A stretch of DNA of 64,000 nt, taken from assembly GCA_964463505.1 (NCBI GenBank), contig CAYXDC010000002.1, positions 28,452 through 92,451 on the forward strand, read 5' to 3'. Source of the stretch: an uncultured Anaerolineaceae bacterium. GTDB lineage: Bacteria; Chloroflexota; Anaerolineae; Anaerolineales; UBA4823. The notes under the pieces are model-generated. The model saw only the letters and a list, made by a program, of their open reading frames with translations. It ran no database searches and was not told the origin of the DNA. Positions 2,978 to 44,415 of the stretch are shown here, one piece after another. Each line of letters opens with the position of its first letter. The first letter of the stretch is position 1. Both the position numbers and the translations under genes were made by a program.

Positions 2978-3985
2978 TTAGATCTGACCGAGAAATAAAT
3001 CACGTCCTTTCACTAAAGCCGCCATTTTACTATCGGCTACCGTACGAGGCAGCATCCAAAAACCACAGTCGGGATGTACCCAACGGATACGCTCGGGTCC
3101 TAGTATCCGGTGACTCAGCTCGATGCGTCTGGCTACTAATTCAGGGGTTTCAATCTCGTTATCCTTAATATCGATCACACCCACCCCCATGGCGATATCA
3201 GGGCGTAGTTCCTTAAAAAGCTCCAACTCATCATAACCACGTCGAGCAAACTCCAATACCACGTGATCTACATTTAGATGGTTGAGGAACCCGAGCAGGT
3301 TGCGCCAAAGACCTTTTTGGATAGATTGCCCCCCATAGTTGCCAAAGCATAAATGCACAGCCTTTTCACCTTTTACAGACGAAAGAACATGGTTGATTGG
3401 TTCATGCGCCCAAGATGCGTCTTCAGGGTGCCCCGGAAGATTGGCTTCATCTACCTGCAAGATGCCAGTGTCAATGTCCGCCATCTGGCGGCGTATCACC
3501 TCGGCAATTGCCATAGCCAGCTCGCGTAGATCATGGTAATGCTCATCCACCAGGGTTTTGGCCAGCATATAAGGGGAGGTTACAGTAAATTTCAGCGGTT
3601 TGGGGGTCAGATTACCGACAAAGCGCCAGGCAGCTGGCAAGTTTAAGCTGCCTTCGCCAATCGGGCCGCGCACAACCCCGGCAGGTTGGCTGCGGAACGC
3701 CATGCCCGGACGATTCCGAAAGTCGTTTAATTCGGTGCGTGAAAGCTGGGTATTGACGTTTTCCATTGGCCGGATGAAATATTCGATCATTCCATTGGTT
3801 TCTGGATGGTTGGGGTCAAAACGGGAGAGTTCGCCGTCGCTGATCACATCCAGACCAGCTAATTCCTGAGTCTTAAGGACAACCAAGATAGCATCCCGCA
3901 AGTGTTGGGTAGTTGGGTACGCGCCTAACCAGGCGGGGATTGGGTAGCTGCCGACAACTGTGGTTTTCAGACTAGGTAAACTCAT
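2978..3985 (-). CDS. Single-barrel cobalamin-independent methionine synthase-like (MetE C-terminal/'core') Zn enzyme
   Basis: TTVVGSYP start, DVISDGE, QVDEA, Zn ligands HLCFG, VLEFA and HPDCG. ATG at 3985 follows SD AGAAAGGA. Confidence 0.85.
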   Translation of the reverse strand: MSLPSLKTTVVGSYPIPAWLGAYPTTQHLRDAILVVLKTQELAGLDVISDGELSRFDPNHPETNGMIEYFIRPMENVNTQLSRTELNDFRNRPGMAFRSQPAGVVRGPIGEGSLNLPAAWRFVGNLTPKPLKFTVTSPYMLAKTLVDEHYHDLRELAMAIAEVIRRQMADIDTGILQVDEANLPGHPEDASWAHEPINHVLSSVKGEKAVHLCFGNYGGQSIQKGLWRNLLGFLNHLNVDHVVLEFARRGYDELELFKELRPDIAMGVGVIDIKDNEIETPELVARRIELSHRILGPERIRWVHPDCGFWMLPRTVADSKMAALVKGRDLFLGQI

Positions 3986-4067
3986 GTGTGGTTCCTTTCT
4001 CATTCAAACGTAGACGATCATTTATTGATAAGGTAGACCTCGTCGCTGAAGCATTCCCGGTAAATGT

Positions 4068-15940: not shown

Positions 15941-16987
15941 ATGTCAAAAACGCGCCTAATGGCGATCGTTACCGCTCCCGGGAAAGTGGAGATATTAGAA
16001 CGGCCTCTGCCAGAACCCGGCCCGACCGAAGTGCAGCTGCGCGTGCGTGCTGTGACCCTGTGTGGTGGGGACATGCATATCTTTGCCGGTAAGCACCCGT
16101 CTGTGTCGCTGCCAGTCCCCATTGGGCATGAGATTGCCGGGGACGTGGTTGCGTTAGGAGAGAAAGTGACCCGCTTGCAGATCGGGGACCGGGTGACGGT
16201 TGAGCCGGTAATCGCATGCGGAAAGTGCTATTTCTGCCAGCGTGGTCAATATCATTTTTGCACCTCCATCAGCTTTCAATATCGCCGCGGACAGGGTGGG
16301 GTGACCACAGATTTTATCGTGGATGAGCGTTGGGCGCACCGCTTACCTGCCGCGGCTACATATACCGAAGGAGCTTTGTTGGAGCCGTTGGCAGTAGCAG
16401 TGCATGCAGTCCAAAAAGCTGATCTCCGCCTGGGGCAGAGCGTGGCGATTTTTGGCGCTGGGGCAATTGGCTTGTTGGTGCTGCAACTGGCGCAGCAGGC
16501 CGGCGCCGGGCAGGTGCTGATCACGGATGTACGTCCAGCGCGTCTGGAGATGGCTCGCCAACTGGGTGCCAGCGCAGCATTGAACAGCCTGGATGGTGAT
16601 GTGCTGGCAGAGATCGCAGCTCTCACAGATGGCCTGGGTGTAGACCGAGCCTTTGAAGCGGTTGGTTTACAGGTTACCCTGGTCCAGGCATTGAAAGCGC
16701 TGCGCAAGGGCGGGCGGGCTGTACTGGTTGGGCTGTTTGAACAGGATGAGCTAACAATCCCAGCCAATATTTTCGTGCACCGTGAGATCGAGCTGTCTGG
16801 GTCACAAGGTTATTGCTGGGATTTTCAAACCGCCATCCAATTCCTGGCGCTGGGAAAGGTGGATTTGCAGCGCCTGATAACGCATGTATACCCCATGGAT
16901 CAAGTTCAGGCGGCGTTTGATACCCTGGCGGATCGTCAGTCTGGAGCAGTGAAGGTTGTCATCCAGATAGGTGACAATAGTTCTTGA
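15941..16987 (+). CDS. Zn-dependent medium-chain (sorbitol/L-threonine-like) dehydrogenase
   Basis: CGGDMH, GHE, structural Zn CGKCYFCQRGQYHFC, GAGAIG. ATG 15941 after GGAGGAG. Confidence 0.92.
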   Translation: MSKTRLMAIVTAPGKVEILERPLPEPGPTEVQLRVRAVTLCGGDMHIFAGKHPSVSLPVPIGHEIAGDVVALGEKVTRLQIGDRVTVEPVIACGKCYFCQRGQYHFCTSISFQYRRGQGGVTTDFIVDERWAHRLPAAATYTEGALLEPLAVAVHAVQKADLRLGQSVAIFGAGAIGLLVLQLAQQAGAGQVLITDVRPARLEMARQLGASAALNSLDGDVLAEIAALTDGLGVDRAFEAVGLQVTLVQALKALRKGGRAVLVGLFEQDELTIPANIFVHREIELSGSQGYCWDFQTAIQFLALGKVDLQRLITHVYPMDQVQAAFDTLADRQSGAVKVVIQIGDNSS

Positions 16988-17040
16988 CAGATGTCTCTGG
17001 TTTTTTATATAATTCGTTAGCGCTAACGGCAACGCTAACG
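16984..17040 (+). promoter_or_regulatory. Consensus sigma70 promoter (TTGACA-N18-TATAAT) followed by a LacI-type operator CGTTAGCGCTAACG
   Basis: TTGACA 16984-16989, TATAAT 17008-17013, perfect 14-bp palindrome 17015-17028, extra half-site CGCTAACG 17033-17040. Confidence 0.8.
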
Positions 17041-17137: not shown

Positions 17138-18160
17138 ATGAATGTGAAGGAAAGGTTCTTGAAAGCTCTGCATCTGGAGGCCGTTGATCGCCCACCTGTG
17201 GCTGCTGTGGCTACCGGGATTACCGTTCAGATGATGGAAAAGGTAGGGATTTATTGGCCTGAAGCGCACAGCGACCCCGACCTATTGGCAGGTCTGGCTG
17301 AATCGATCTGGGTGCATACCAATATCGAGTGCATGAAGCTACCCTTTGATATGGTGGTTGAGGTTGAGGCACTGGGTGCCCAAATCAATTACCGCACTCG
17401 AGATACTCTGCCCACTGAAGTTGGGCATTTATACAATCATCCCGATCAACTCACCATCCCCAAGAATTTCTTTGATCTAGGGCGTGTCCCTACTGTTCTC
17501 AAAGCGATTCATTCCCTGCGCAAACGCTACGATGAGGAAGCACCGATCGTCTCCTCGATTGTAGGTCCGTTCTCAATCGCCGGGAAACTGTTCGGATTTG
17601 AGAATTTCTTGATCTGGATCATAACTAACCCGGAATTGGTCCACCAGGCGATGGCTGCCTTGACCCCCCTGGCAATCGCCTATGCCAATGCGCAGATTGA
17701 GGCAGGGGCCGATGCTATCATTATTGGGGAGGCTTCTTGCACAGGCGACCTGATTTCTCCGTTTACCTACCGTGATTTAATCGCTCCCTATCATGGCCAG
17801 CTCTGTCCGGCGATCCAAGGCCCAACAATCATGCATATCTGTGGCAAGTCCACTCGCCATACACCTTTCCTGGCCGATATCGGCACCAACTGTTACAACT
17901 TCGACGAAGGGGTGGATATTCAGGTCGCTGTACATAATTTAAAAGGCAAGGTCGCCCTGGCTGGTTATGTGCCGACTGTAAAAGTACTGCTTAATGGAAC
18001 CCCTGAGGATGTATATCGGTCCACGATGGAATGCCTGGATAATGGAGTGGATATGGTGACCCCGGGTTGCGCCATGGCCCCCTATACACCACTTGAAAAT
18101 ATTGCTGCGATGACGCAGGCAGTTCGGGATTGGAAACCTAACCCAACCGCTGTAGGATAG
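17138..18160 (+). CDS. MtaA/CmuA-family methylcobamide:thiol methyltransferase-like protein (UroD superfamily)
   Basis: KERFLKAL...VDRPPV, YWPEAHSDP, EVEALG, GRVPTVLKAI, GPFSIAG, Zn motif MHICG...TPGCA. Confidence 0.85.
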   Translation: MNVKERFLKALHLEAVDRPPVAAVATGITVQMMEKVGIYWPEAHSDPDLLAGLAESIWVHTNIECMKLPFDMVVEVEALGAQINYRTRDTLPTEVGHLYNHPDQLTIPKNFFDLGRVPTVLKAIHSLRKRYDEEAPIVSSIVGPFSIAGKLFGFENFLIWIITNPELVHQAMAALTPLAIAYANAQIEAGADAIIIGEASCTGDLISPFTYRDLIAPYHGQLCPAIQGPTIMHICGKSTRHTPFLADIGTNCYNFDEGVDIQVAVHNLKGKVALAGYVPTVKVLLNGTPEDVYRSTMECLDNGVDMVTPGCAMAPYTPLENIAAMTQAVRDWKPNPTAVG

Positions 18161-18208: not shown

Positions 18209-19345
18209 GTGAGCCGGATTGCGCGTGTGGAAGTTGGTCGCTATGATTATGTCTTTGCCGGGGCATTTAAATTCTTCAAACCCGGAAAAGATGGAGTGGT
18301 CCGCCGTCCAACCGTGTTTGTCCGCCTGACCGATGAGGCTGGCTTGCAGGGTTGGGGACAGGCTGTGCCAGTGCCCACCTGGACTTACGAGACGGTTGAG
18401 ACTGTGGAAAGCACCTTAACTAACTACCTGGCTGAGGCAGTGCTGGGCGCGGACCCAGATGACCTTTCCGAGGTCCACCGGCGCATGGACTATGCTATCC
18501 GTCCGGGGTTCTCAACCGGACAGCCGATCGCCAAAGCTGCCCTGGACCTGGCTTGCTACGATCTGGTTGGGAAGCGGGAAGGCGTTCCCGTCGCCAATCT
18601 CTTGGGTGGAGCCCGCCGCGATGCAATTCGCTTGAATTGGACTTTAAATGCTCTCACATTGGCGGAGGCTGAAATCCAATTGGAAAAAGCACGCATCGGC
18701 GGTTTTGGCCACTTCAACATCAAAGTTGGTCCACCACAAACACCGGAATATGACTTGGAGTTGGTGCGCCTTGTGCGTCGGGAATTCCCCGATACATTCC
18801 TGTGGGTGGATGCCAATACCGGCTATCGCCTGGAGACCGCTCTTGACATGCTGCCAAAATTTGCCGCAATGGGCGTTCAGGCAATTGAATCTCCCCTACC
18901 TCCTAACCAATTACGTGGCTATCAGGCACTAAAGAAAAATGGCGCGGTGCCCATCTATATGGATGAAGGTATTATTTCACCAGTAGAGACGGCCGAGTTC
19001 ATCGCTTTGGAGATGTTCGACGGAGTGACCTTGAAGCATGCGCGGTCGGGTGGCTTGTGGCAAGCTCAACAGATTATTCGCCTGGTTAAAGAGGCCGGGT
19101 TGCAATTGCTTGGCTCTGGCCTCACCGATCCGGATTTATCATTGGCAGCCGCGTTGCATTTGTATGCCTGGGCAGATATCGACCGTCCATGCGCTTTAAA
19201 TGGACCACAGTTTATTGGCGAGACCCTGGTAAAGGATGGCTACAGTATTCAAGGTGACTTGATCTTCCTTCCCACCGGGCCTGGTCTGGGGATTGAATTG
19301 GACGAGAAAGCCCATTCGGTCCTGCGCGTTGCAGCGGAAGCCTAA
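18209..19345 (+). CDS. Enolase-superfamily enzyme, muconate cycloisomerase (MLE) subgroup
   Basis: GWGQA, AALDLACYDLVGK, FNIKVG, VDAN, IESP, MDEG, LKHARSGG, PTGPGLG. Confidence 0.88.
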   Translation: MSRIARVEVGRYDYVFAGAFKFFKPGKDGVVRRPTVFVRLTDEAGLQGWGQAVPVPTWTYETVETVESTLTNYLAEAVLGADPDDLSEVHRRMDYAIRPGFSTGQPIAKAALDLACYDLVGKREGVPVANLLGGARRDAIRLNWTLNALTLAEAEIQLEKARIGGFGHFNIKVGPPQTPEYDLELVRLVRREFPDTFLWVDANTGYRLETALDMLPKFAAMGVQAIESPLPPNQLRGYQALKKNGAVPIYMDEGIISPVETAEFIALEMFDGVTLKHARSGGLWQAQQIIRLVKEAGLQLLGSGLTDPDLSLAAALHLYAWADIDRPCALNGPQFIGETLVKDGYSIQGDLIFLPTGPGLGIELDEKAHSVLRVAAEA

Positions 19346-19354
19346 AGGTTAACC

Positions 19355-20821
19355 ATGCAGAATCTGACCGTAGCGCTGAAGCACACATCCCGAACACTCC
19401 ATAACTTGCAGACGCGCATTCCTTTTCGCTACGGATTTGCTACTCTGACAGCTTTTCCCCATCTTGTTCTTGAAGCGACATTTGAAATCAATGGCACACT
19501 CCAGAAAGGCTGGTCTGCTGAGAGCCTGATCCCGAAATGGTTCACTAAGGACCCTGACACAGAGTTTTCGGACGATCTAGTGGATATGCTTGCGGTAATC
19601 CGCCAGGCGGGTGTTTTCGCTGTCCGGATTGGGACTGCACCGAGCCTGTTTACCTGGTGGTGGGATCTTTACCATATCCAAAAGCGATGGGGAGAGAGAC
19701 ACGGCTATCCGGCGTTGCTCTGGAACCTGGGCGTCAGCTTATTGGAGAGAGCTGCGATCGATGCCTATTGTAGGGCTGGTAGGATCACCTTTGCCGCTGG
19801 GTTGCGTGAAAATGCCTATGGCATCCAACTCGGTCAGGTACACCCCATTTTGGAGAATAGCCAGCCAGTCGATTGGCTGCCAGCCCTGCCGCTCGAGCAG
19901 ATCAGTGTACGCCATACTGTCGGCCTGGCGGATTGTCTCACAGAGAGTGAAATCCCCCAAGCAGAGCGTAACCAGGATGATCTACCGCGGTCTTTGGAAG
20001 CTGCGATAGCTGCTTATCAGTTGCGTTATTTTAAAATCAAACTCTCCGGTGATGGATCGACAGACTTACACCGTTTAGCACAAATTGCTGCACTCTTACA
20101 CGGCATTGGGTTGGCAGACTACCAGTTCACTCTGGATGGCAATGAGCAGTTCCATCAGTCGACTGATTTTCTGGATTTTTGGCAGTCTTTACTAGATGCC
20201 ACCACTCTGGCAGACTTTCTCACGCATCTACTGTATGTCGAACAGCCTCTCCATCGCTCAGTTGCTCTGGATGAGCGTACCCGCCAGGCGTTTCTAAATT
20301 GGGAGGCGCGGCCACCCATCATCATCGATGAATCAGATAGCGACCTCACAAGCCTGGTACGGGCGATTGAATGTGGTTATGTGGGGACCAGCCATAAGAA
20401 TTGCAAGGGGGTTTTCAAAGGCATCGCCAATGCTTGCTTATTGGAAGCTCTGCGCCGGCAGAATCCTGACCAGCTCTTTCTGTTGAGTGGTGAGGACCTA
20501 GTCAATGTCGGACCGCTGGCTTTGCAACAAGATTTGGCAGTAATGGCATCATTGGGTATTGTGCACGTAGAACGCAACGGTCAACATTATTTCAATGGCT
20601 TGAGTGGTTTTCCTGCTTCGGCTCAGGCGGCGGTCCTGGCTTGCCACCCCGACTTATATCGAGAGCACCCGGCTGGTTATCCCGTCTTAAGGATTGAAGA
20701 TGGGGCTATCTCCACTCAGAGTATTAATACTGCCCCATTTGGATTATGCGTAGAGCTTGACACTGCTGAATTTACACCGGAAGAGGAGTGGGAATTTACC
20801 TCACTCGGTCTCCCAATATAG
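19355..20821 (+). CDS. Divergent enolase-superfamily (mandelate racemase/MLE-like) protein
   Basis: TRIPFRYG N-terminus, YFKIKL, LDGNEQ, YVEQP, IIDES, SHKNCKG, HVERNG. Confidence 0.75.
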   Translation: MQNLTVALKHTSRTLHNLQTRIPFRYGFATLTAFPHLVLEATFEINGTLQKGWSAESLIPKWFTKDPDTEFSDDLVDMLAVIRQAGVFAVRIGTAPSLFTWWWDLYHIQKRWGERHGYPALLWNLGVSLLERAAIDAYCRAGRITFAAGLRENAYGIQLGQVHPILENSQPVDWLPALPLEQISVRHTVGLADCLTESEIPQAERNQDDLPRSLEAAIAAYQLRYFKIKLSGDGSTDLHRLAQIAALLHGIGLADYQFTLDGNEQFHQSTDFLDFWQSLLDATTLADFLTHLLYVEQPLHRSVALDERTRQAFLNWEARPPIIIDESDSDLTSLVRAIECGYVGTSHKNCKGVFKGIANACLLEALRRQNPDQLFLLSGEDLVNVGPLALQQDLAVMASLGIVHVERNGQHYFNGLSGFPASAQAAVLACHPDLYREHPAGYPVLRIEDGAISTQSINTAPFGLCVELDTAEFTPEEEWEFTSLGLPI

Positions 20822-20839: not shown

Positions 20840-21667
20840 ATGGAAAAACCTGTAAATGAAACTTCTCAATTGAAAAAGAGTGAATTTATGGAAAATCTCA
20901 AGAACCGTTTGATGCCTTTCATTGGTATCTTTGGATTCCTGCTGATCTGGGAACTGGCAGTAATTGTGTTCGATATAAAAAGTTATTTGCTCCCCAGGCC
21001 GACCATGATTGTGCAAGAAGTCATTGTTCGGTTTGATTCTTTGATGAGTCATGGCGCGACAACGGCGTATGAAACCTTGCTTGGTTATGCCCTGGCGATC
21101 GCAATCGCTGTTCCTCTGGCAATAGGGATTACCTCATCGGCGGCTTTTGACCGCTTTATTATGCCGATCCTGCTGTTTTTCCAGGTGGTTCCAAAAATTG
21201 CAATTGCGCCCTTGTTCCTGATCTGGTTCGGTTTTGGCACGATGCCAAAAGTGATGGTTGCTTTCTTGATCTCGTTCTTTCCTATTGTGATTGATACTGC
21301 TGTAGGATTGCGCTCAATCTCTTCGGAGATGATTGACCTGGCGCGTTCCATGGGCGCTACCAAATCACAAATATTCCTACGCTTCCGCTTACCCACCAGC
21401 CTACCCTATCTATTCAGTGGTTTGAAGGTTGCCGCTACACTGGCAGTGGTAGGTGCAGTGGTGGGTGAATTCGTCGGAGCAGACCGTGGTCTGGGGTATT
21501 TATTACTCGTATCTAATTCAAATCTGAATACCGCCTTGACTTTTGCCACCATCGTTGTCCTTACGGCTCAAGGATTGTTTCTATTCTATGTAATTGAGAT
21601 CCTGGAACGTTTCATGATCCCATGGCACGTTTCTCGCCGGACGACCCCTGAACATGCGACGATGTAA
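20840..21667 (+). CDS. ABC transporter permease, NitT/TauT/SsuC family
   Basis: FQVVPKIAIAPLFLIWFGFG, EAA-like 'IDLARSMGATKSQIFLRFRLPTSLPYLFSGLK', GEFVGADRGLG. Confidence 0.92.
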   Translation: MEKPVNETSQLKKSEFMENLKNRLMPFIGIFGFLLIWELAVIVFDIKSYLLPRPTMIVQEVIVRFDSLMSHGATTAYETLLGYALAIAIAVPLAIGITSSAAFDRFIMPILLFFQVVPKIAIAPLFLIWFGFGTMPKVMVAFLISFFPIVIDTAVGLRSISSEMIDLARSMGATKSQIFLRFRLPTSLPYLFSGLKVAATLAVVGAVVGEFVGADRGLGYLLLVSNSNLNTALTFATIVVLTAQGLFLFYVIEILERFMIPWHVSRRTTPEHATM

Positions 21668-21776
21668 GGCAAAATTTGGTGGAAGGAGGTGATTTTGCGA
21701 CAATCGAATTACATAGTTGTCTGTCTTAGGTCAAAACCATATACAAAATACTGATTACCTTGAGGAGACTCTGCAC

Positions 21777-22835
21777 ATGAAGAAAGTTAATGTCCTTCGT
21801 TTGTTCGCGGCGCTCATGATCGTGGCGCTGATCGCGGGCTGCGCTCCGCAGCCTGCTGCTACCCCAGTAGCAACTGAGGAACCAGCGGAAGAGTTGGTAA
21901 AAGTCGACTTTCGCCTGAATTGGACTCTTTATGGCGAACATGCCCCGTTCTTCCTGGGTGTTGATAAAGGCTTTTACTTAGAAGAGGGCTTGGATGTAAC
22001 AATCTTGGAAGGCAGTGGTTCAGCCACAGTTGTGAAGCTGATTGGCAATGGCACCAATGTGATTGGTTATGCTGACTCAGCAACCATGCTGCGCGGCATC
22101 AGCGCCGGCGTGCCGGTGAAGGCGGTGGCAGTCACCTTCCAGTCTAGTCCGATGGCCTTCATCTATCGCCAGGATGCTGCCCGACCGACCACCATCGAAG
22201 AAGTAAAAGGTACTAAGATCGCCATCACCGCAGGTGATGCCAGTCTGGCGATCCTGGAAGCCTGTCTGGGTCGCAATAACATGACTATGGAAGACGTTCA
22301 ATTAATCCAGGTCTCGAACCCGGCTTCTAAAGAAACCGCAGTGCTAGAAGGCCAGACGGATGCGTTCCTCGGATATTTTGTTGATCAACCGATGCGTATG
22401 GAGAAGGTTACCGGCGTAGATATGGGTTGGTCTAAACTGGTTGATCTTTGCGATGTAAATACCCTGAGCAGCGCCATCATCGCCAATAACTTCTATGCCG
22501 AACAGAACCCGGAAGTAATTGCCAAGTTCGTGCGCGCTTCTCAACGCGCCTGGCAATACACCTTGGATCACCCCGAAGAAGCGGCTGAAATCTTCTCCCA
22601 GCACGCTGAGGCTTTTGATGTTCCTCTGTCGTTGGCCGAAATCGAAGGCTCTTTGACCTTGATGCACACTGCCAACAGTGAAGGGAAGCCGATTGGTTGG
22701 TCTGCTCCGGAAGATTGGACTGCCACCCAGGACGTTCTGGCTCAATACGCTGGATTCAAGCCTGAAGAGGATATCAACGTTTTCTTCACCAATGAGTTCA
22801 TCTCCGAACCTCCCTATTTGCCTCCAGCGGAATAA
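21777..22835 (+). CDS. ABC substrate-binding lipoprotein, NMT1/THI5-like (NitT/TauT family)
   Basis: Lipobox LIAGC after a basic + hydrophobic signal; FRLNWTLYGEHAPFFLGVDKGFYLEEGLDV; EGSGS. ATG 21777 after GAGGAG. Confidence 0.9.
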   Translation: MKKVNVLRLFAALMIVALIAGCAPQPAATPVATEEPAEELVKVDFRLNWTLYGEHAPFFLGVDKGFYLEEGLDVTILEGSGSATVVKLIGNGTNVIGYADSATMLRGISAGVPVKAVAVTFQSSPMAFIYRQDAARPTTIEEVKGTKIAITAGDASLAILEACLGRNNMTMEDVQLIQVSNPASKETAVLEGQTDAFLGYFVDQPMRMEKVTGVDMGWSKLVDLCDVNTLSSAIIANNFYAEQNPEVIAKFVRASQRAWQYTLDHPEEAAEIFSQHAEAFDVPLSLAEIEGSLTLMHTANSEGKPIGWSAPEDWTATQDVLAQYAGFKPEEDINVFFTNEFISEPPYLPPAE

Positions 22836-22854: not shown

Positions 22855-22891
22855 GGTTCTCCCCATAGGCCGAAATCCTGTGGGGAGAACC
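22855..22891 (+). promoter_or_regulatory. 15-bp stem-loop between the SBP and ATPase genes (mRNA stability/attenuation element)
   Basis: GGTTCTCCCCATAGG (22855-22869) pairs with CCTGTGGGGAGAACC (22877-22891) with one G-U pair. No U-tract follows. Confidence 0.7.
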
Positions 22892-22909
22892 CTCCAAGAG
22901 AAGATCAAG

Positions 22910-23686
22910 ATGACTGAACCCTATATTCGCTTGCAAAATGTCGAGAAAGTCTACCAGACGAAAGACAACCCAACCCTAGCGGTAGAGAATGCTGACTTTG
23001 ACATTCAAAAATCTCAGTTCATAGCTATTGTGGGTCCCAGCGGCTGTGGCAAGACCACCATTCTTAAAATGTTGGCTGGGTTGGTTCCCTATACTTCCGG
23101 GTTGATTACGATCGACGGAAATAAAGTTAACCGGCCACAGACGGATCTCGGTATTATCTTCCAGGATTCAGTTCTGCTGGACTGGCGAGATGTGCTCTCG
23201 AATGTTATGTTGCAGATTGAAATCCGCGGGCTGGATCAAAACATTTATGCACCGCGGGCACATGAACTGCTGAAAGCGGTTGGGCTGGATGGATTTGAAA
23301 CCAAGAAACCCTATGAGCTTTCGGGTGGAATGAGACAACGCGTAGCAATCTGCCGAGCGCTGGTCCATGATCCGCCGCTTCTATTGATGGATGAGCCATT
23401 CGGTGCGTTGGATGCCCTAACCCGTGAGCAGATTTCGATGGATATTCAGCACCTGTGGATGGAAAAGCGCAAAACGGCCTTACTGATCACGCATAGTATC
23501 CCCGAGGCGGTCCTCCTGGCTGATCGGGTGATCGTCATGAGTCCGCACCCCGGACGTATTGTTGAAATCATTGATATTGATCTACCGCGCCCACGCCGCC
23601 TGGACCAATTACCAGAACGGTTTAATGACTACACCGGTCACATTCGGAAGATTTTCCAGGCTTCAGGTGTTTTAGCGCTGGATTAA
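22910..23686 (+). CDS. ABC transporter ATP-binding protein, NitT/TauT family
   Basis: GPSGCGKT, LSGGMRQR, LLMDEPFGALDALTRE, ITHSIPEAVLLADRV. Confidence 0.93.
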   Translation: MTEPYIRLQNVEKVYQTKDNPTLAVENADFDIQKSQFIAIVGPSGCGKTTILKMLAGLVPYTSGLITIDGNKVNRPQTDLGIIFQDSVLLDWRDVLSNVMLQIEIRGLDQNIYAPRAHELLKAVGLDGFETKKPYELSGGMRQRVAICRALVHDPPLLLMDEPFGALDALTREQISMDIQHLWMEKRKTALLITHSIPEAVLLADRVIVMSPHPGRIVEIIDIDLPRPRRLDQLPERFNDYTGHIRKIFQASGVLALD

Positions 23687-23705: not shown

Positions 23706-24050
23706 ATGGCGAACTATTTGGTCGAGCAGATGGAGGACATCGGAACCATCCGCTGTCCCTGTGGTTTTACGCGGCGGGCGTTTGTAAATACGGAAAATGA
23801 TATAGCCACCCTGCATCTGCTGGATGTCGATGAAGACGCCCGCGTGCATTTCCACGAAACCCTGACCGAGATATATCTGATACTGGAGGGCGAAGGCATG
23901 CTGGAGTTGGACGGTGAGCAGGTCCCCGTAAAGCCAATGACCGCAGTGATGATCAAGCCCGGTTGCCGCCATCGTGCAGTTGGCAAGCTGCGAGTTGCTT
24001 TGGTGGCAATTCCGGCATTTAACCCCGCAGATGAGTGGTTTGACGAGTAA
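23706..24050 (+). CDS. Cupin-domain protein with an N-terminal CPCG motif
   Basis: Cupin motifs HFHETLTEIYLILEGEG and IKPGCRH; RCPCGFTRRAF at the N-terminus. Confidence 0.85.
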   Translation: MANYLVEQMEDIGTIRCPCGFTRRAFVNTENDIATLHLLDVDEDARVHFHETLTEIYLILEGEGMLELDGEQVPVKPMTAVMIKPGCRHRAVGKLRVALVAIPAFNPADEWFDE

Positions 24051-25272
24051 GCAGGCTGCGCAAAGATTAGATGTGCCGGCAACACTGCCCAAACTGGCAG
24101 CTACGCGGCGTTGGTACCATGTAGCAGGAGCGTGGCTGGGCATTGGCACTTCGCCAGGGGCGTTGCTCCTGGGCGCTGGTCTGGCAGCTCGCTATGGCGG
24201 TCCAGTGCCGCTGATTTCGATTCTGCTGAGCGCGCTGTTCATGTTTATCTTGTTGTGGTTCCAGGGTTCATTGGGTCTGGCACGCCCTTTGGGAGAAGGA
24301 TGCAATCTCAACCAAATCACCCCGCGTTATTTTGGAGTTGGCACGCAGCGAATGGTAGGTGCAGTAATTGCTCTGGGGATGGTCGGGTGGCTAGGTTTTA
24401 ATATTGGTCTGGGTGGTGCAGCACTGGGCGCCTTGTTGCGCTTGCCGGATGCGGCTGGGGCATTACTCTTGGGCTTGCCGATTGTCGCATTTTCCTTACG
24501 CGGGTTGCATAGTTGGAATCGCCTGGCAAGCCTGACCACACTGGCAGTTCTGGCTTTGGTGGGTATCATTGTTTCGCTACTGGCTGCGCGGACCATGCCG
24601 GTAACGTTTACCCTGCCGACCCCAGTTGGGTTGGTGACGGATGTTGCGGTTTTTGTAGGCTATATATCGGTATTCACGGTCCGCGCCCCAGATTTCACGG
24701 TTGGTTTACCCTCTCGACGGGATTTATTAGCAGTTGAAGGCTTGTTGATTATCCCAATTTTGCTCATAGCACTGGCGGGAGTCGGCTTGCAGCAAGGGAC
24801 CGGCTCAGCCGACCTGGTGGGAATTCTTGCCGAACCAGGCGGCCTGGCAATTGGCAATCTTCTGGTAGCGATCTCTATCATTGCGCCTACTTTTACCGCT
24901 TTATATTCTGGAGCACCTGCTTTGCAGGCGGCATTCCCAATGCAAGAACGACTGGCAATGCTGATCGTTACCAGCATCGGATTGACTCTGGCAATCCTGC
25001 GTTTTGATCTCAAATTACTGCCTTGGGTGACGGTACTGGCTGCCATGCTGCCCCCCTTGGTTGTACCTCTGGCAGTTGAATCAACCCGCCGCCGGCGGGG
25101 TAATCCCGATCGTTTGATCCCTTTATGGGTCTGGGCGCCGGGTGCATTGTTCTCAATGTTGTTATCCTTGATGCATAATCCCCTCGCCCCTTTGGTGGGG
25201 TTTTTAGTTACTGCCCTGGCAACGGCTAGCTGGTATTTTTTCTCCAGAAGGCGGTTGGAACGCGCCACCTGA
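24031..25272 (+). CDS. Purine/cytosine permease-like (NCS1/APC fold) transporter
   Basis: About 12 hydrophobic segments; 'WLGIGTSPGALLLG', 'GMVGWLGFN', 'APDFT', 'ALYSGA' resemble CodB-type permeases. Start uncertain (ATG 24031 or TTG 24040). Confidence 0.65.
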   Translation: MSGLTSKQAAQRLDVPATLPKLAATRRWYHVAGAWLGIGTSPGALLLGAGLAARYGGPVPLISILLSALFMFILLWFQGSLGLARPLGEGCNLNQITPRYFGVGTQRMVGAVIALGMVGWLGFNIGLGGAALGALLRLPDAAGALLLGLPIVAFSLRGLHSWNRLASLTTLAVLALVGIIVSLLAARTMPVTFTLPTPVGLVTDVAVFVGYISVFTVRAPDFTVGLPSRRDLLAVEGLLIIPILLIALAGVGLQQGTGSADLVGILAEPGGLAIGNLLVAISIIAPTFTALYSGAPALQAAFPMQERLAMLIVTSIGLTLAILRFDLKLLPWVTVLAAMLPPLVVPLAVESTRRRRGNPDRLIPLWVWAPGALFSMLLSLMHNPLAPLVGFLVTALATASWYFFSRRRLERAT

Positions 25273-25293: not shown

Positions 25294-26337
25294 ATGGTAC
25301 TTCCCATGAAAATTGATCAATGGCAAACCTTGCAACGCTGCGCACGTATGGAAGACCCTGGTGCGATCCCAGTGGCGCTGATCGTCGACTCCCCCTGGAT
25401 ACCGGGCTATTTGGGCATTTCGACCCTTGATTACCTGGGCAACCCGGAAATTTGGTTGCAAGCAAACCTGGAAGTGGAACAGCGTTTTCCAGATGTGATT
25501 TTCATGCCCGGTTTTTGGGCTGAAATGGGGATGGCAGCGGAGCCAAGTGGTTTTGGCTGCCGGATGAGTTTCTATGATGACCGCACGCCCCTGGTCCATC
25601 CGTTGCTCGATTCATTAGAGGATGTAGATCAGTTGCACCAGCCTGATCCAACCAGCGATGGGCTAATGCCATTCCTGCTAAACAAGATGCGAAAATTTGA
25701 GCCGCGTATACAGGATGCCGGACATGTCGTGAAAATTGTGGCCGCCCGTGGTCCGCTCGCAGTGGCCTCGCACCTATTGGGGATGACCAACTTCTTGTTG
25801 GGTGTTAAATTGGATCCAGCCAATACCCACCGCCTGTTACGGATTGCCACCCAGACGGTACGTGACTGGTTAGAAGCCCAAGCGAATGCTCTTACTGCCG
25901 CTGAAGGCGTAATGCTCCTGGATGATGTAGTAGGCTTCCTAAGCGAGAAGGACTATCTGGAATTTGCCCATCCTTATTTGAAAGAAATCCTGGATGCGTT
26001 TCCAGGTGCAGTAAAATTTTTTCATAATGATATGGATACAACTGTATCGTTCTCCCATCTGGCAGACCTTGGCATTCATATATTTAATTTCACTCACCTG
26101 CGCAGCCTGGATCGAGTAAGGCAATTGGTCGGGCCGCGGGTCTGTTTGATGGGGAATGTCCCCCCCTTGGATGTGTTGGCGCGTGGCACCCCGCAAGATG
26201 TGTTGCAAGCTGGGCACACCTGCCTGAAACTACACCCGGATCGGCGTGGTTTGATTCTCTCAGCCGGAGGTGGGGTTTCACCAGGTGTCCCGGGTGAGAA
26301 TATCCTGGCCCTATTGGATGCAGTCAGCCAGAGATAA
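25294..26337 (+). CDS. Uroporphyrinogen decarboxylase/MtaA-superfamily protein lacking the Zn-Cys ligands
   Basis: MAAEPSGFGC, ARGPLAVAS, LLDDVVG, FAHPYLKEI, CLMGNVPP, GTPQDV. FFHND and SAGGG stand where HxC and GC are expected. Confidence 0.82.
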   Translation: MVLPMKIDQWQTLQRCARMEDPGAIPVALIVDSPWIPGYLGISTLDYLGNPEIWLQANLEVEQRFPDVIFMPGFWAEMGMAAEPSGFGCRMSFYDDRTPLVHPLLDSLEDVDQLHQPDPTSDGLMPFLLNKMRKFEPRIQDAGHVVKIVAARGPLAVASHLLGMTNFLLGVKLDPANTHRLLRIATQTVRDWLEAQANALTAAEGVMLLDDVVGFLSEKDYLEFAHPYLKEILDAFPGAVKFFHNDMDTTVSFSHLADLGIHIFNFTHLRSLDRVRQLVGPRVCLMGNVPPLDVLARGTPQDVLQAGHTCLKLHPDRRGLILSAGGGVSPGVPGENILALLDAVSQR

Positions 26338-26350
26338 GGAGATAGCTGGG

Positions 26351-27517
26351 ATGATTAAAGTTGCAATCATTGGCTGCGGTGCGATCGCGGACAGCCATAT
26401 ACGTGCCTACCAGAAATTTCCGGCTGAATGTCAGATCGTCGCCCTGGTAGATCTGTATCCAGAGAAAGCTGCCCAAAAGGCACAAGCCTACCAATTAGAA
26501 GCCGCGGTTTACGGCGATTACCAGAACTTGATTGTGGAGCAAGCAGTCGATCTAGTATCGATCTGTCTACCACCCTTTGCCCATGCACCAGCAACCATTG
26601 ATCTACTGAATGCAGGTGTGCATGTGCTGATAGAAAAACCGATGGCAACCTCAGTCGAAGAATGTGACGCGATGGTTCGGGCAGCAGACGCCAATCAGCG
26701 CCTGCTATCGGTTGTGGCTCAGAATCGATTCCAGACCCCGGTCCTGAAGTTGAAACAGGTGCTTGATTCTGGGCGAATAGGGAAGTTGTTACATGCTCAG
26801 GTTGACTCCTTCTGGTGGCGCGGGCCGAGTTACTATGATCTGTGGTGGCGTGGCACCTGGGAGAAAGAGGGCGGCGGTTGTACGATGAACCACGCCGTTC
26901 ACCATATCGATCTATTTCAGTGGATGATGGGCATGCCGAATGAACTTCAAGCGGTAATTGCCAATCTGGCCCATGAAAATTCGGAAGTGGAAGACTTCTC
27001 GCAGACCACATTCTATTATCCCGATGGGCGCATGGGTGTGTTGACCGCCTCACTGGTGCATCATGGAGAGGAACAGCAAATGCTATTCCAGGGAGAGCGG
27101 GCTGCGGTGGGGATGCCCTGGAAGGTGCGCGCTTCTCACCCGCGCCCGAATGGCTTCCCAGATGAAGATACTCAGTTAATCGCCGAGTTACAGGCATATT
27201 TTTCCCAATTGCCTGAGATAACACATATATTGCACGATGGCCAGATTGCGAATGTCCTGGCAGCGATCAGAGGCGAGCAACCACTCCTGTTGGATGGGCG
27301 CGAAGGCCGTAAGACAATTGAATTGGTTATGGCGATCTACCAATCAGCCAGTTTAGGACAGCGGGTTAAGCTGCCGCTTACCCCGTTAGACCCCTTCTAC
27401 ACTCGCCAGGGAGCGCTGGCAAACGCACCCCATTTTCATGCAAAAACCAGCAGTGTGGAAAATTTCACTGACAACAATATCACCTTCGGGCGGGATTTCA
27501 ACTCAAAGCAAGTCTGA
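26351..27517 (+). CDS. Gfo/Idh/MocA-family oxidoreductase
   Basis: VAIIGCGAIA, HVLIEKPMA, VVAQNRF, GGGCTMNHAVHHID. ATG 26351 after AAGGAG. Confidence 0.92.
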   Translation: MIKVAIIGCGAIADSHIRAYQKFPAECQIVALVDLYPEKAAQKAQAYQLEAAVYGDYQNLIVEQAVDLVSICLPPFAHAPATIDLLNAGVHVLIEKPMATSVEECDAMVRAADANQRLLSVVAQNRFQTPVLKLKQVLDSGRIGKLLHAQVDSFWWRGPSYYDLWWRGTWEKEGGGCTMNHAVHHIDLFQWMMGMPNELQAVIANLAHENSEVEDFSQTTFYYPDGRMGVLTASLVHHGEEQQMLFQGERAAVGMPWKVRASHPRPNGFPDEDTQLIAELQAYFSQLPEITHILHDGQIANVLAAIRGEQPLLLDGREGRKTIELVMAIYQSASLGQRVKLPLTPLDPFYTRQGALANAPHFHAKTSSVENFTDNNITFGRDFNSKQV

Positions 27518-27546: not shown

Positions 27547-28626
27547 TTGTCCACACAAAAAATTGATGGAATGCGCTACGCACCCAAAGGTAAACCTAAT
27601 CCGGTCTGCCAGAAGGGTGAGTTTCGGGTTGCGGCGATTGGCCTGGATCATGGGCATATATTTGGGATGTGCAATGGGTTGTTAGAAGCCGGAGCTGAAT
27701 TAGCCTGGGTCTATGATCCGGACGCCAAAAAAGTGGCTGATTTTTGTAAACGCTATCCAGATACTCAACCGGCTGCTTCCGCCCAAGCCATCCTGGATGA
27801 TCCTCAGATCCATTTGATCGCTTCCGCCTCAATCCCGGTCCAGCGCTGCTCGTTAGGTTTGCGCGCCATGGAGCACGGCAAAGATTTCTTTGCCGATAAG
27901 CCGCCCCTGATCACCCGGGAGCAATTAGCCCAGGCAAGTGCAAAAGTAGCTGAAACCGGACGTAAGTACGCTGCCTATTATTCAGAACGACTGCACGTGG
28001 AATGTGCGGTTATGGCGGGTGATCTGATCCAGTCCGGAGCAATCGGTCGAGTCTTGCAGGTTGTAAACCTGGCTCCCCATCGACTGAATGCTCCCGAGCG
28101 CCCTGACTGGTTTTTCAAGAAAGCCAGTTATGGTGGGATCCTGATTGACCTGGGTAGCCACCAAATTGAACAATTCCTCTATTATTCTGGCGCTAAAGAT
28201 GCCCACGTGCTGCATAGCAAGGTTGCCAATTACCATAATCCGACTCAGCCAGATTTTGAAGATTTTGGGGATGCAACCTTGATCGCCGATAATGGTGCAA
28301 CCCACTACCTGCGTGTGGACTGGTTCACACCGGAAGGCCTGGGGGTGTGGGGGGACGGTCGTGTCTTTATCATGGGAACTGATGGCACTATTGAGCTGCG
28401 TAAATATATCGATATTGGGCGAGATGGCGAGGGTGATCATCTCTATCTGGTCAACCAAGCAGGTCTGCAGCATATGGCGCTTCATGGACAGGTGGGTTTC
28501 CCGTTCTTCGGTCAGCTCATTCTGGACTGCCTTAATCGCACTGAAAAGGCCATGACACAGGCGCATACTTTCAAAGTGATGGAATTAGCCATTCAAGCTC
28601 AAGAAATGGCTGATAAGATCGCCTGA
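27547..28626 (+). CDS. Gfo/Idh/MocA-family oxidoreductase
   Basis: AAIGLDHGHI, FFADKPP, YSERL, YGGILIDLGSHQ, YLRVDWFTP. Confidence 0.9.
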   Translation: MSTQKIDGMRYAPKGKPNPVCQKGEFRVAAIGLDHGHIFGMCNGLLEAGAELAWVYDPDAKKVADFCKRYPDTQPAASAQAILDDPQIHLIASASIPVQRCSLGLRAMEHGKDFFADKPPLITREQLAQASAKVAETGRKYAAYYSERLHVECAVMAGDLIQSGAIGRVLQVVNLAPHRLNAPERPDWFFKKASYGGILIDLGSHQIEQFLYYSGAKDAHVLHSKVANYHNPTQPDFEDFGDATLIADNGATHYLRVDWFTPEGLGVWGDGRVFIMGTDGTIELRKYIDIGRDGEGDHLYLVNQAGLQHMALHGQVGFPFFGQLILDCLNRTEKAMTQAHTFKVMELAIQAQEMADKIA

Positions 28627-28647: not shown

Positions 28648-30051
28648 GTGGTCAATCGTTTTGATGTTAGCACGGTAGGGGCGCAGTTGTATTTTCTCCC
28701 GGTGGAGACACGCGTCCCATTGAAATTCGGGCCTGAAACATTGACCTCGGTCACCTGCGCCAGGGTATGTTTGCGTGTCCAGGATCGTCAGGGGCGCATT
28801 GCTGAAGGGTGGGGTGAGACTCCCCTGAGTGTGCAATGGGTATGGCCCTGCCAGCTCAGCTATAGTGAGCGGCATTCGACGCTGCAAGAGTTTTCCATAA
28901 TGCTGGTGCAAGCCTGGGCAGAGTTTGGCAAATGGGGTCACCCGCTTGAGATTGGATACACTTTCCAAAAAAAGATTTTACCCGATCTATTGAATCAAGT
29001 AAACAACGCCCGAGCAGACAAGGAGCCAATGCCCTGGCTAGCTGCCCTGGTGTGCTGCTCGGCTTTTGATATTGCTTTGCATGACGCATATGGTATCGTG
29101 AATGGTTTGCCCGTCTATGAGACTTACCAGCCTCCCTACATGAATAAAGACCTGGCAGCCTATTTAAAACCAGGGGACGGGAGTGGAGTATCCTTTCAGG
29201 GTCGATTTCCGGTGGACTTTCTGCAATACCCACCCCCAGCGCTATTGCCCGTCTGGCATTTGGTAGGAGGATTGGATCCTCTCGGAGCAGATGAGTTGAC
29301 CGGTAGTGAACCCCAGGATGGCTATCCGGTCTTATTACGTGATTGGATTACCCGCGATGGTTTGAAATGTCTGAAGGTTAAGCTGCGTGGGAATGATCCT
29401 GTCTGGGATTACACACGCCTGATACATGTGGGACAGATTGCTCTTGAGACGGGTGTTGACTGGCTCACAGCAGATTTCAATTGTACGGTAACCGATCCGG
29501 AATATGTGAACGTGATCCTCGACTCTCTGCTGCAGGAACACCCCCGTCTGTATGGCATGCTTTTGTATGTCGAGCAGCCTTTCCCTTATGATCTGGAACG
29601 CAATCGGATCGATGTCCATAGTGTAGCGGCGCGCAAGCCGCTCTTTATGGATGAAAGCGCCCATGATTGGGAGCTGGTACGACTCGGTCAGAGCCTGGGT
29701 TGGAGTGGTGTGGCTCTGAAAACCTGCAAGACGCAAACTGGAGCGCTGCTCAGCCTGTGTTGGGCCAAAGCGCATGGTATGACCCTGATGGTGCAAGATT
29801 TGACGAATCCAATGTTGGCCCAAATTCCGCATGTCCAGCTTGCTGCGCATGCCGGGACGATTATGGGGATTGAATCAAATGCGATGCAGTTTTATCCGCA
29901 GGCTTCACAAGCGGAGGCGGCAGTACATCCGGGTCTGTATCAACGGAGAAAAGGCAAGCTAGATCGATCTACTCTATCTGGGCCTGGATTTGGCTATCGT
30001 CTTGCAGAAATCCGCCTAAAACTTCCTGATCCTGTAGTTACAGCGAGTTAG
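28648..30051 (+). CDS. Divergent enolase-superfamily (mandelate racemase/MLE-like) protein
   Basis: TRVPLKFG, EGWGETPL, CLKVKLRG, TADFNC, YVEQP, FMDESA, ALKTCKT, GPGFGY. Confidence 0.8.
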   Translation: MVNRFDVSTVGAQLYFLPVETRVPLKFGPETLTSVTCARVCLRVQDRQGRIAEGWGETPLSVQWVWPCQLSYSERHSTLQEFSIMLVQAWAEFGKWGHPLEIGYTFQKKILPDLLNQVNNARADKEPMPWLAALVCCSAFDIALHDAYGIVNGLPVYETYQPPYMNKDLAAYLKPGDGSGVSFQGRFPVDFLQYPPPALLPVWHLVGGLDPLGADELTGSEPQDGYPVLLRDWITRDGLKCLKVKLRGNDPVWDYTRLIHVGQIALETGVDWLTADFNCTVTDPEYVNVILDSLLQEHPRLYGMLLYVEQPFPYDLERNRIDVHSVAARKPLFMDESAHDWELVRLGQSLGWSGVALKTCKTQTGALLSLCWAKAHGMTLMVQDLTNPMLAQIPHVQLAAHAGTIMGIESNAMQFYPQASQAEAAVHPGLYQRRKGKLDRSTLSGPGFGYRLAEIRLKLPDPVVTAS

Positions 30052-30069: not shown

Positions 30070-31077
30070 TTGATTAAACGCGTCACCTTGGCAGATGTTG
30101 CTCGTCAGGCAGGTGTTTCCATGCAAACCGTATCACGCGCGGTGCGTAATAAAGACGAGATCAGCACTGAAACACGGGAACGGATCATGGCGATAGTGAA
30201 CGAGCTGGGTTACCGGCCCAGTGGTATCGCTCGCAGCCTGGTCACACAGCGAACAACAACGGTTGGCTTAATGGTTCCCGATATTGCCAACCCGTTTTTC
30301 TCTGAGATTGCCCGGGGTGTTGAGGATACCGCCTATGCCCATGCTTATACATTATTTTTGTGTAACGCGGCTGAAGATATCGAGCGTGAAAAAGCTGCCT
30401 TAAACTCTCTTCTGGAAAAACAAGTTGATGGGGTGATCATCTGCAGCCCGCGCCTTCCAATGACCGATCTATTGGCCTACCTTGAGCAGTTCTACTATGC
30501 CGTAGTATTCAATCGCGATTTAAGCGAAGACATAGATAAGGTGCGGTTGATCTATGTGGATGATCAGGAAGGTACGCGACTGGCGTGGGATCATTTTGTC
30601 CTGCATGGTCATCAGAAGATCGGTATGTTGGCCGGCCCAGTCCAATCGTGGAGCAGCCAGAAGCGGGTGGCGAGCTTCCGTGCTGCATGCAAATCTGCAG
30701 GGCTGGATGGCTGTCTGGAGTTGATCCAGCATTGTATGCCTACCATTGCTGGGGGATTGGAAGGGACTGAACGATTGTTGATTGATCATCCGGAAATTAC
30801 CGCCATCCTCGCTTTTAATGACCTGGTAGCAATTGGTGCCTTACGTATCTGCCAAAAACTTGGCCGAAGGGTTCCTCAGGATATCGAAATAATTGGCTCA
30901 GATGATATCCCCCTGGCTTCTTTAATGACGCCCCCGCTTACTTCACTGCATGTCCCACATCGCACCTTGGGTGTCACTGGTATGCAATCCCTTATCCAAC
31001 TTCTCAATGGCGAAAAACCCGACCCATATCGGATTATTTTTCATCCAGAACTGACTTTGCGCTGCTCGGCGCCTTGA
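30070..31077 (+). CDS. LacI-family transcriptional regulator
   Basis: TLADVARQAGVSMQTVSR HTH, LGYRPSGIARSL hinge, NPFFSEIARG, NDLVAIG, IIGSDDI, PPLTSL. Confidence 0.95.
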   Translation: MIKRVTLADVARQAGVSMQTVSRAVRNKDEISTETRERIMAIVNELGYRPSGIARSLVTQRTTTVGLMVPDIANPFFSEIARGVEDTAYAHAYTLFLCNAAEDIEREKAALNSLLEKQVDGVIICSPRLPMTDLLAYLEQFYYAVVFNRDLSEDIDKVRLIYVDDQEGTRLAWDHFVLHGHQKIGMLAGPVQSWSSQKRVASFRAACKSAGLDGCLELIQHCMPTIAGGLEGTERLLIDHPEITAILAFNDLVAIGALRICQKLGRRVPQDIEIIGSDDIPLASLMTPPLTSLHVPHRTLGVTGMQSLIQLLNGEKPDPYRIIFHPELTLRCSAP

Positions 31078-43953: not shown

Positions 43954-44415
43954 ATGAACGAACACAAAGATAGTATTAGTGAACGGAAAATTCGCGTGGT
44001 AGTGGCCAAACCAGGTCTGGATGGACATGATCGGGGCGCTAAAGTAGTCGCCCGGGCTTTACGCGATGCCGGGATGGAAGTGATTTACACCGGTTTGCGC
44101 CAGACACCTGAAATGATTGTGGAGACAGCCCTGCAAGAAGATGCAGACGTCGTGGGCCTTTCGGTTCTTTCAGGAGCTCACATGGCGCTGGTGCCACGCA
44201 TATTGGAAATGCTGCGTGCCAATGGTCAGGAAAATGTTAAAGTTTTCGTAGGTGGAATTATTCCTGACGAGGATGTGCCGCGTTTGCTCGAAATGGGCGT
44301 GGTTGGCGTGTATGGTCCGGGAACTATTACGGAGGCCATCATTCTGGATGTTCGCAGGGCTGTATTGGGATACAGTGATGCAGACACCCAGCCGGCTCAG
44401 GGTGGACTGCGCTAG
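43954..44415 (+). CDS. Acyl-CoA mutase cobalamin-binding small subunit (MCM/ICM C-terminal domain)
   Basis: [12 protein letters not shown] (DxHxxG), [28 protein letters not shown]. Confidence 0.95.

Follow-up and report, generated by a model that had tools for sequence, protein, structure and literature searches.

In the Chloroflexota we find a clade of MtaA/CmuA-like proteins that keep a His-Cys-Cys zinc site and are fixed to a module of regulator, importer and enolase-superfamily genes. We also find candidate partners for these proteins encoded in trans in the same genome. Both observations are new here, and we found no description of this clade or its gene context in the literature. The member that we studied, P0001, is encoded at 17138-18160 on the plus strand of the window, the whole 64,000-nt stretch of DNA that was analysed (G000:C2:28452-92451). 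Our leading explanation, which we hold tentatively and at somewhat less than even chances, is that P0001 is a corrinoid-dependent S-demethylase or thiol methylase with carriers encoded elsewhere and an anionic, sulfur-bearing substrate or intermediate. This explanation builds on the observed family membership, zinc site, operon position, synteny and trans partners; from these we infer corrinoid dependence in vivo, the direction of the reaction and an acidic sulfur substrate.

A zinc-site member of the MtaA/CmuA family

The gene is an open frame for an intact UroD-fold protein of 340 amino acids. The Pfam URO-D model covers it end to end (6.6e-71), and it passed the curated cut-offs of NCBIfam PRK06252, the 'methylcobalamin:coenzyme M methyltransferase' model (342.4 bits against 244), and of TIGR01463 for MtaA/CmuA (285.6 bits against 235.4). 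It failed those of the methanogen MtaA equivalog NF040654 (313 bits against 400) and the MtbA equivalog NF041608 (232 bits against 600). An identity as HemE is ruled out by TIGR01464 (55.3 bits against 302.95); the probable real hemE of the genome, on contig C15, is a far stronger URO-D match (324.7 bits).

Residues 3-328 align with MtaA of Methanosarcina mazei (PDB 4AY7; E 6.6e-61) at about 39-40% identity (40/102 of the first aligned columns). The putative zinc ligands H233, C235 and C311 lie in register with the HICG and PGC motifs of 4AY7 (H233-I-C235 and C311); they are invariant in 31 clade members of 59-95% identity and were found in 87/87 relatives examined. An invariant lysine, K67, aligns with MtaA R70, and a YWPEAHSDP motif occupies residues 39-47. 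A preliminary description of the window had reported a methanogen-like MtaA homolog with this motif and an intact H-x-C...C site. The MtaA-type identity is borne out by the family cut-offs, the motif and the site. The resemblance to MtaA is real, but 'methanogen-like' is too strong a label for this level of identity and the missed MtaA equivalog cut-off.

By score and zinc site, then, we assign P0001 to the MtaA/CmuA family. We judge that neither methanogen MtaA or MtbA nor HemE describes it, and we place it outside type 1 mlp clusters and the O-demethylase branch. What we say of its function beyond family membership we infer. A search for fusions returned no longer, fused forms of the protein; the sole fusion within the clade is a 590-aa GntR-MtaA call (P0053), possibly two merged genes.

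With M. mazei MtaA (4AY7/4AY8) the protein shares a full-length alignment, the UroD-type barrel, the H-x-C-G...P-G-C zinc motif and a basic residue at the R70 position. Unlike that enzyme, it falls below the equivalog cut-off, is bacterial, opens a LacI-regulated catabolic operon, and has no adjoining MtaB or MtaC and no CoM biosynthesis genes that we could find. The Mlp proteins of type 1 mlp clusters are likewise bacterial, soluble coenzyme M methyltransferase homologs with a His-Cys-Cys site, and methyl-sulfur or methyl-selenium compounds are their proposed substrates; their clusters combine two to three Mlps with a corrinoid protein and RACE, and occur in obligate anaerobes, mostly Firmicutes (PMC10418091). 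P0001 differs in being a single Zn-type gene product from Chloroflexota, with no such neighbours and with sugar-acid-like surroundings. Assignment to a type 1 cluster (at least Mlp2, Mlp3, a corrinoid protein and RACE) was rejected, as the window and the orthologous loci hold one Zn-type copy and no carrier or RACE.

The gene heads a LacI-type operon

The preliminary description placed the gene at the head of a LacI operon, and the sequence just upstream agrees. The 150-nt gap before the gene carries promoter-like hexamers and a palindrome (16984-17040, +): TTGACA at 16984-16989, an 18-nt spacer, TATAAT at 17008-17013 and then CGTTAGCGCTAACG at 17015-17028, which we read from the sequence as a predicted LacI-type operator with an extra half-site. 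The palindrome CGTTAGCGCTAACG occurs once in the 64,000-nt window; orthologous LacI-MtaA operons in L024, L032-L035, L037, L056 and genome G576 also have its core, GTTAGCGCTAAC, at their head. We count this conservation in favour of the leading explanation.

All further genes of the operon lie on the plus strand. The first encodes an MLE-subgroup enolase-superfamily enzyme of 378 aa (18209-19345; Pfam MR_MLE_N and MR_MLE_C). In the PDB it comes closest to chloromuconate cycloisomerase 1NU5 (1.3e-43), and in most orthologous loci its gene trails that of the MtaA-like protein. It is followed by a protein of 488 aa (19355-20821) that has no Pfam match, is syntenic in relatives and is a distant paralog (E about 1e-10) of a 467-aa protein at 28648-30051, itself with only a weak match to MR_MLE_C. 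We call these two the 'long enolases'. Homologs of the second adjoin MtaA-like genes directly in L028, L030, L039, L040 and L047. No solved or named relative of either was found, so the substrate cannot be guessed from them.

Between the long-enolase genes, profile searches identified an ABC importer, with a permease (20840-21667), an NMT1/THI5-type binding protein (21717-22835) and an ATPase (22880-23686). A 432-aa protein with no Pfam match follows (23974-25272; syntenic in G021, G576, G690, L034, L041 and L056), and then a second UroD-fold paralog of 347 aa (25294-26337; syntenic in G021, G576, G690, L041 and L056). This paralog lacks the zinc cysteines and reads H-x-D and G in place of H-x-C and C; among solved structures it matches true uroporphyrinogen decarboxylases best (about 1e-9) and CdmB weakly. 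Two Gfo/Idh/MocA oxidoreductases identified by profile matches (26270-27517 and 27547-28626) precede the second long enolase, and the operon ends with a LacI-family repressor (30070-31077), whose gene immediately precedes the MtaA gene in most relatives.

The island also comprises an upstream operon headed by IclR, with genes for a flavoprotein, a GH88-like protein, an SDR, KDG kinase, KDPG aldolase, an OYE, a CoA-transferase, a crotonase, an FAH and a Zn-ADH, and, on the opposite strand, a xylose-isomerase-like barrel and a single-barrel MetE-like (Meth_synt_2) protein (2978-4003, -). The last, present in the same island in G576, keeps the H-x-C, E and C zinc ligands in an alignment with single-barrel MetE 3RPD, confirming the nearby MetE-like zinc enzyme that had been noted before. 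Elsewhere in the genome, a MetE-like paralog and another UroD-like gene lie about 2.4 kb apart on contig C69 (C69:1047-2105, C69:4544-5737). Two more UroD-like genes lie on C29 (C29:25725-26918), and C31 too has UroD-like coding sequence.

A rare Chloroflexota clade with a steady set of neighbours

The clade spans Chloroflexota sequences of 58-95% identity to P0001. The nearest named homologs belong to Anaerolineae, Caldilineae and Chloroflexi MAGs. Database homologs numbered 366, and genomic context was taken from a metagenome scan and four GTDB genomes; a scan of genome contigs with the single protein as query gave no match. The whole island is syntenic in three further species representatives, G021, G576 (98% complete) and G690 (from another family), and in many metagenome contigs. 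The clade is nevertheless rare among species representatives: it was present in 2/24 of the family and 2/400 of the order sample (G576 and G690), and a phylum sample of 400 genomes held no ortholog besides the window's own.

The steadiest neighbours of clade members are a regulator, LacI or GntR, and an NMT1-type ABC importer; in deep-branching members FCD-type GntR regulators stand in for LacI. An MLE or long-enolase gene occurs in 15/19 informative clade loci, though not in L037 or L046, and L047 shows a minimal long-enolase and MtaA pair on its own. In two metagenome contigs the MtaA-like gene is duplicated in tandem where the orthologous operon begins (L033:1182-2931 and L041:2780-4469). 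A deep-branching member of 59% identity from a marine metagenome (L044:31-1812) lies just downstream of Rieske/desaturase-like and PhyH dioxygenase genes, a setting that hints at aerobic life in some hosts.

Corrinoid genes adjoin the wider family

Genes for corrinoid proteins, pterin MT2 and MttB were all missing from about 228 kb of sequence around 30 clade members. Among distant relatives (24-43% identity), in contrast, an MtaC-type protein adjoins the gene in 23/39 informative loci, often together with a pterin MT2, and at 29-37% identity there are fusions to B12-binding domains, MtrH or RACE. Bacterial MtaA-like genes of this kind (L061, L065, L097 and others) share with ours the tree branch, the zinc ligands and 32-37% identity. 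They differ in the adjoining carrier and MT2, which imply an MT1 role for the MtaA-like partner and which never occur in the window's clade.

We placed the clade with two quick tree searches, FastTree on 226 rows and IQ-TREE in quick mode on 72 rows. Both recovered it with full support, nested in a group (98-99% support) with sequences of 41-47% identity that mostly lack known context; one relative at 41% identity adjoins a GH2 glycosidase. The next neighbour branch includes a B12-fused form.

A second, separate His-Cys-Cys MtaA-like clade, 32-34% identical to P0001 (L078:10001-13206, L083:790-3997, also L089 and L092), is nested among corrinoid-adjacent branches. Directly 3' of each of its MtaA-like genes lies a long-enolase homolog, 63-71% identical to the product of 28648-30051, followed in L078 and L083 by a gene of the D-glutamate-cyclase family (PF07286). 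Upstream in L078 are a ROK regulator and a sugar-type ABC importer, with a homolog of the binding protein in L074. Since two separate MtaA-like clades have a long-enolase partner, this link either arose at least twice or is old.

Candidate partners are scattered through the genome

The preliminary description stated that the island contains no corrinoid protein, substrate methyltransferase (MT1) or RACE activator and that the only DxHxxG in the window belongs to a mutase subunit. This holds: the window yielded no gene for a corrinoid protein, an MT1 or a RACE, and the only one of the genome's PF02310 matches that falls within it is a 153-aa mutase-type subunit (C2:72441-72788, window 43990-44337), and contig C2 as a whole has no PF02607, PF14574 or MttB match. 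The implied absence of partners does not hold for the genome (G000; 3.46 Mb in 165 contigs, 88.6% complete; like the others an incomplete MAG). It encodes two MtaC-type corrinoid proteins (C5:58725-59396 and C58:2369-3019), one pterin-binding MT2 (C5:59420-60295) besides MetH, two RACE activators (on C22 and C125) and seven non-Pyl MttB-family methyltransferases. The contigs with MttB, MtaC-type or pterin MT2 genes include C3 (127-1605), C104 (5524-6978), C162 (5-1384), C5 and C58. No corrinoid gene lies near the MttB genes on C104 and C3 or near either RACE gene. Seven MttBs against two corrinoid proteins and one pterin MT2, with several MttBs lacking a nearby carrier, suggests that carriers are shared.

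A genome search had been proposed for corrinoid, MT1, RACE and CoM biosynthesis genes. It recovered genes of the first three kinds, while ComA and ComB were not found in this 88.6% complete genome; nor was MtaB, and a methanol route was dismissed on that ground. A conventional, co-regulated O-demethylase set elsewhere had been named as something that might explain the gene away; of such a set, the presence of partner genes is as much as we found.

Among other carriers of the island, G021 and G576 are equipped as G000 is, with MtaC-type corrinoid proteins and RACE among the genes. Island-free relatives (G011, G450 and G007) equally have both, so this equipment is permissive and gives no specific signal either way. 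Searches of G690, which has the island and is 82% complete, returned neither a PF02607 match nor an MttB, nor any B12-binding protein of MtaC size. A DUF1638 gene and a gene for a short Fer2-RACE (535-558 aa) form a conserved pair in G000 (C125:865-3223, locus L125), where it adjoins formate-tetrahydrofolate ligase, and in G690 (C14:5109-7401, locus L124).

A tentative role in corrinoid-dependent sulfur methyl transfer

As we picture it, an enzyme of the MtaA/Mlp branch, resembling soluble coenzyme M methyltransferases, would have been taken into a LacI-repressed catabolic operon as its first enzyme. Its His-Cys-Cys zinc would bind the sulfur (or selenium) of a compound imported by the NMT1-type ABC importer, or of an early intermediate, and a methyl group would pass between the bound atom and a cob(I)/methyl-cob(III) corrinoid. 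The catabolic setting makes demethylation the likelier direction, so that the enzyme would probably act in an MT1 role on an S-methyl (thioether) organic acid. The corrinoid carrier, the RACE reactivator and the methyl-corrinoid:tetrahydrofolate methyltransferase would be supplied in trans, with the two corrinoid proteins on C5 and C58, the pterin MT2 on C5 and the RACE proteins on C22 and C125 as candidates. The demethylated thiol acid would then pass to the MLE and long-enolase enzymes and the dehydrogenases.

The choice of sulfur or selenium chemistry over O-demethylation follows from the zinc site: in the UroD superfamily, S- and Se-methyltransferases have a His-Cys-Cys zinc sphere and O-demethylases replace the cysteines (PMC10418091). 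MtaA, of which R70 is an active-site residue, takes non-native thiols, some of them carboxylic acids, and can be partnered with a corrinoid protein that an MttB-family enzyme has loaded (PMC13618148). The invariant K67 at the R70 position fits an anionic substrate, and the FCD-type GntR regulators and enolase-superfamily neighbours would also suit a carboxylate. A corrinoid is suggested by the wider family, which is corrinoid-linked through the 23/39 loci, the fusions and the B12-fused form in the nearest outgroup. Supply in trans is suggested by the already scattered partner genes of G000 and by the MtaC-type proteins and RACE encoded in G000, G021 and G576 alike.

Several observations weaken this explanation: the empty surroundings of 30 clade members, the apparent lack of an MtaC-type protein and MttB in the incomplete, island-bearing G690, and the remaining island genes (GH88, KDG kinase, KDPG aldolase, Gfo oxidoreductases), which resemble ordinary sugar-acid catabolism. 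Methylthioribose, methylmercaptopropionate, ergothioneine, methyl-CoM and O-methyl inositols were considered as substrates, and none could be supported.

Alternative explanations

The first two observations could instead mean that the clade has left the corrinoid-protein system and works with the long-enolase or MLE enzymes and the ABC importer, using a free cobamide or a non-methyl Zn-thiolate chemistry, which may be thiol addition to or elimination from an unsaturated acid, or C-S bond cleavage. We consider this unlikely, though it is the strongest competitor. Besides the contrast between no corrinoid protein in 228 kb and 23/39 informative loci elsewhere in the family, and besides the state of G690, it would account for the solitary long-enolase and MtaA pair of L047 and for the long-enolase homolog that directly trails the second MtaA-like clade, and the oxygenase genes beside L044, with their hint of an aerobic host, also fit it. 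To our knowledge, however, all characterised members of the branch use a corrinoid donor or acceptor, and P0001 is conserved with MtaA from end to end. G690 is only 82% complete and keeps the DUF1638-RACE pair, a sign that it has some client for a corrinoid; in G000 partner genes are scattered as a rule; and the long-enolase link is partial, as the four informative loci without either enolase-type gene show. A narrower version, which we regard as more doubtful still, is that the clade, the long-enolase and MLE enzymes and the NMT1-type importer form a module free of corrinoid proteins that carries out an undescribed Zn-thiolate reaction on an imported sulfur-bearing organic acid. If true, this would be a new route of organosulfur catabolism in Chloroflexota, with methylthio sugar acids or thiol cofactors released by neighbouring methanogens as possible targets.

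The methyl group could also flow the other way. P0001 would then act as an MT2, passing methyl groups that the seven MttBs strip from quaternary amines to a thiol of the LacI-operon pathway, as MtaA does with CoM, in a methyl sink or an S-methylation. The protein is most like the MT2 enzymes MtaA and MtbA, the genome has many MT1s and only one pterin MT2, and a mixed MttB-family/MtaC/MtaA system is active in vitro on non-native thiols (PMC13618148). We nevertheless give this role a low probability. The gene is grouped in regulation with the importer and catabolic enzymes and not with the MttB genes, no MttB was found in G690 at its 82% completeness, and related branches with an adjoining corrinoid protein and pterin MT2 point to MT1 for the MtaA-like partner.

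The preliminary description had suggested demethylation of an O-methyl sugar acid such as 4-O-methylglucuronate. The surroundings would suit a methoxylated sugar acid, with the GH88-like protein, KDG kinase, KDPG aldolase, Gfo/Idh/MocA oxidoreductases and LacI, as would the GH2 glycosidase beside the relative at 41% identity. The zinc site speaks against it, and we think O-demethylation by P0001 improbable. OdmB, VdmB, MtvB and CdmB (PDB 9RUI), the O-demethylase and chloromethane MT1s of the UroD superfamily, are corrinoid-dependent catabolic demethylases, but P0001 has no detectable match to CdmB (9RUI). The superfamily's O-demethylases have carboxylates or no ligands in place of the two-cysteine sphere (PMC10418091), and CdmB and MtvB need no zinc (PMC13222342), whereas P0001 keeps His-Cys-Cys. 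For oxygen chemistry, the Zn-free paralog at 25294-26337 is the better candidate.

The preliminary description had also hinted at thiol- or CoM-like carrier chemistry. Its thiol or thioether part fits the His-Cys-Cys site (PMC10418091), and CoM as acceptor is unlikely given that ComA and ComB were not found. That P0001 is a true coenzyme M methyltransferase using the cell's own CoM, for which the PRK06252 score and the basic residue at the R70 position might speak, is barely credible in a Chloroflexota bacterium whose 88.6% complete genome yielded no ComA, ComB or MtaB and whose protein misses the MtaA and MtbA equivalog cut-offs.

Implications

Methanogens and anaerobic Firmicutes encode MtaA-type enzymes within tightly clustered systems for corrinoid methyl transfer. 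Here a coherent Chloroflexota clade lies outside that setting: its gene is fixed as the first of a catabolic operon under repressor control, together with genes for an importer and enolase-superfamily enzymes. Whether or not a carrier is involved, the enzyme can be put to a direct test along with the operator, the repressor and the binding protein. If the clade works without a carrier, it would represent a new activity for the UroD fold. If P0001 is the S-demethylase that we tentatively favour, an unrecognised class of S-methylated (or thiol) acids would serve as carbon sources for Anaerolineae-type bacteria, and the genome would also suggest a hub, with a few corrinoid carriers serving many scattered methyltransferases.
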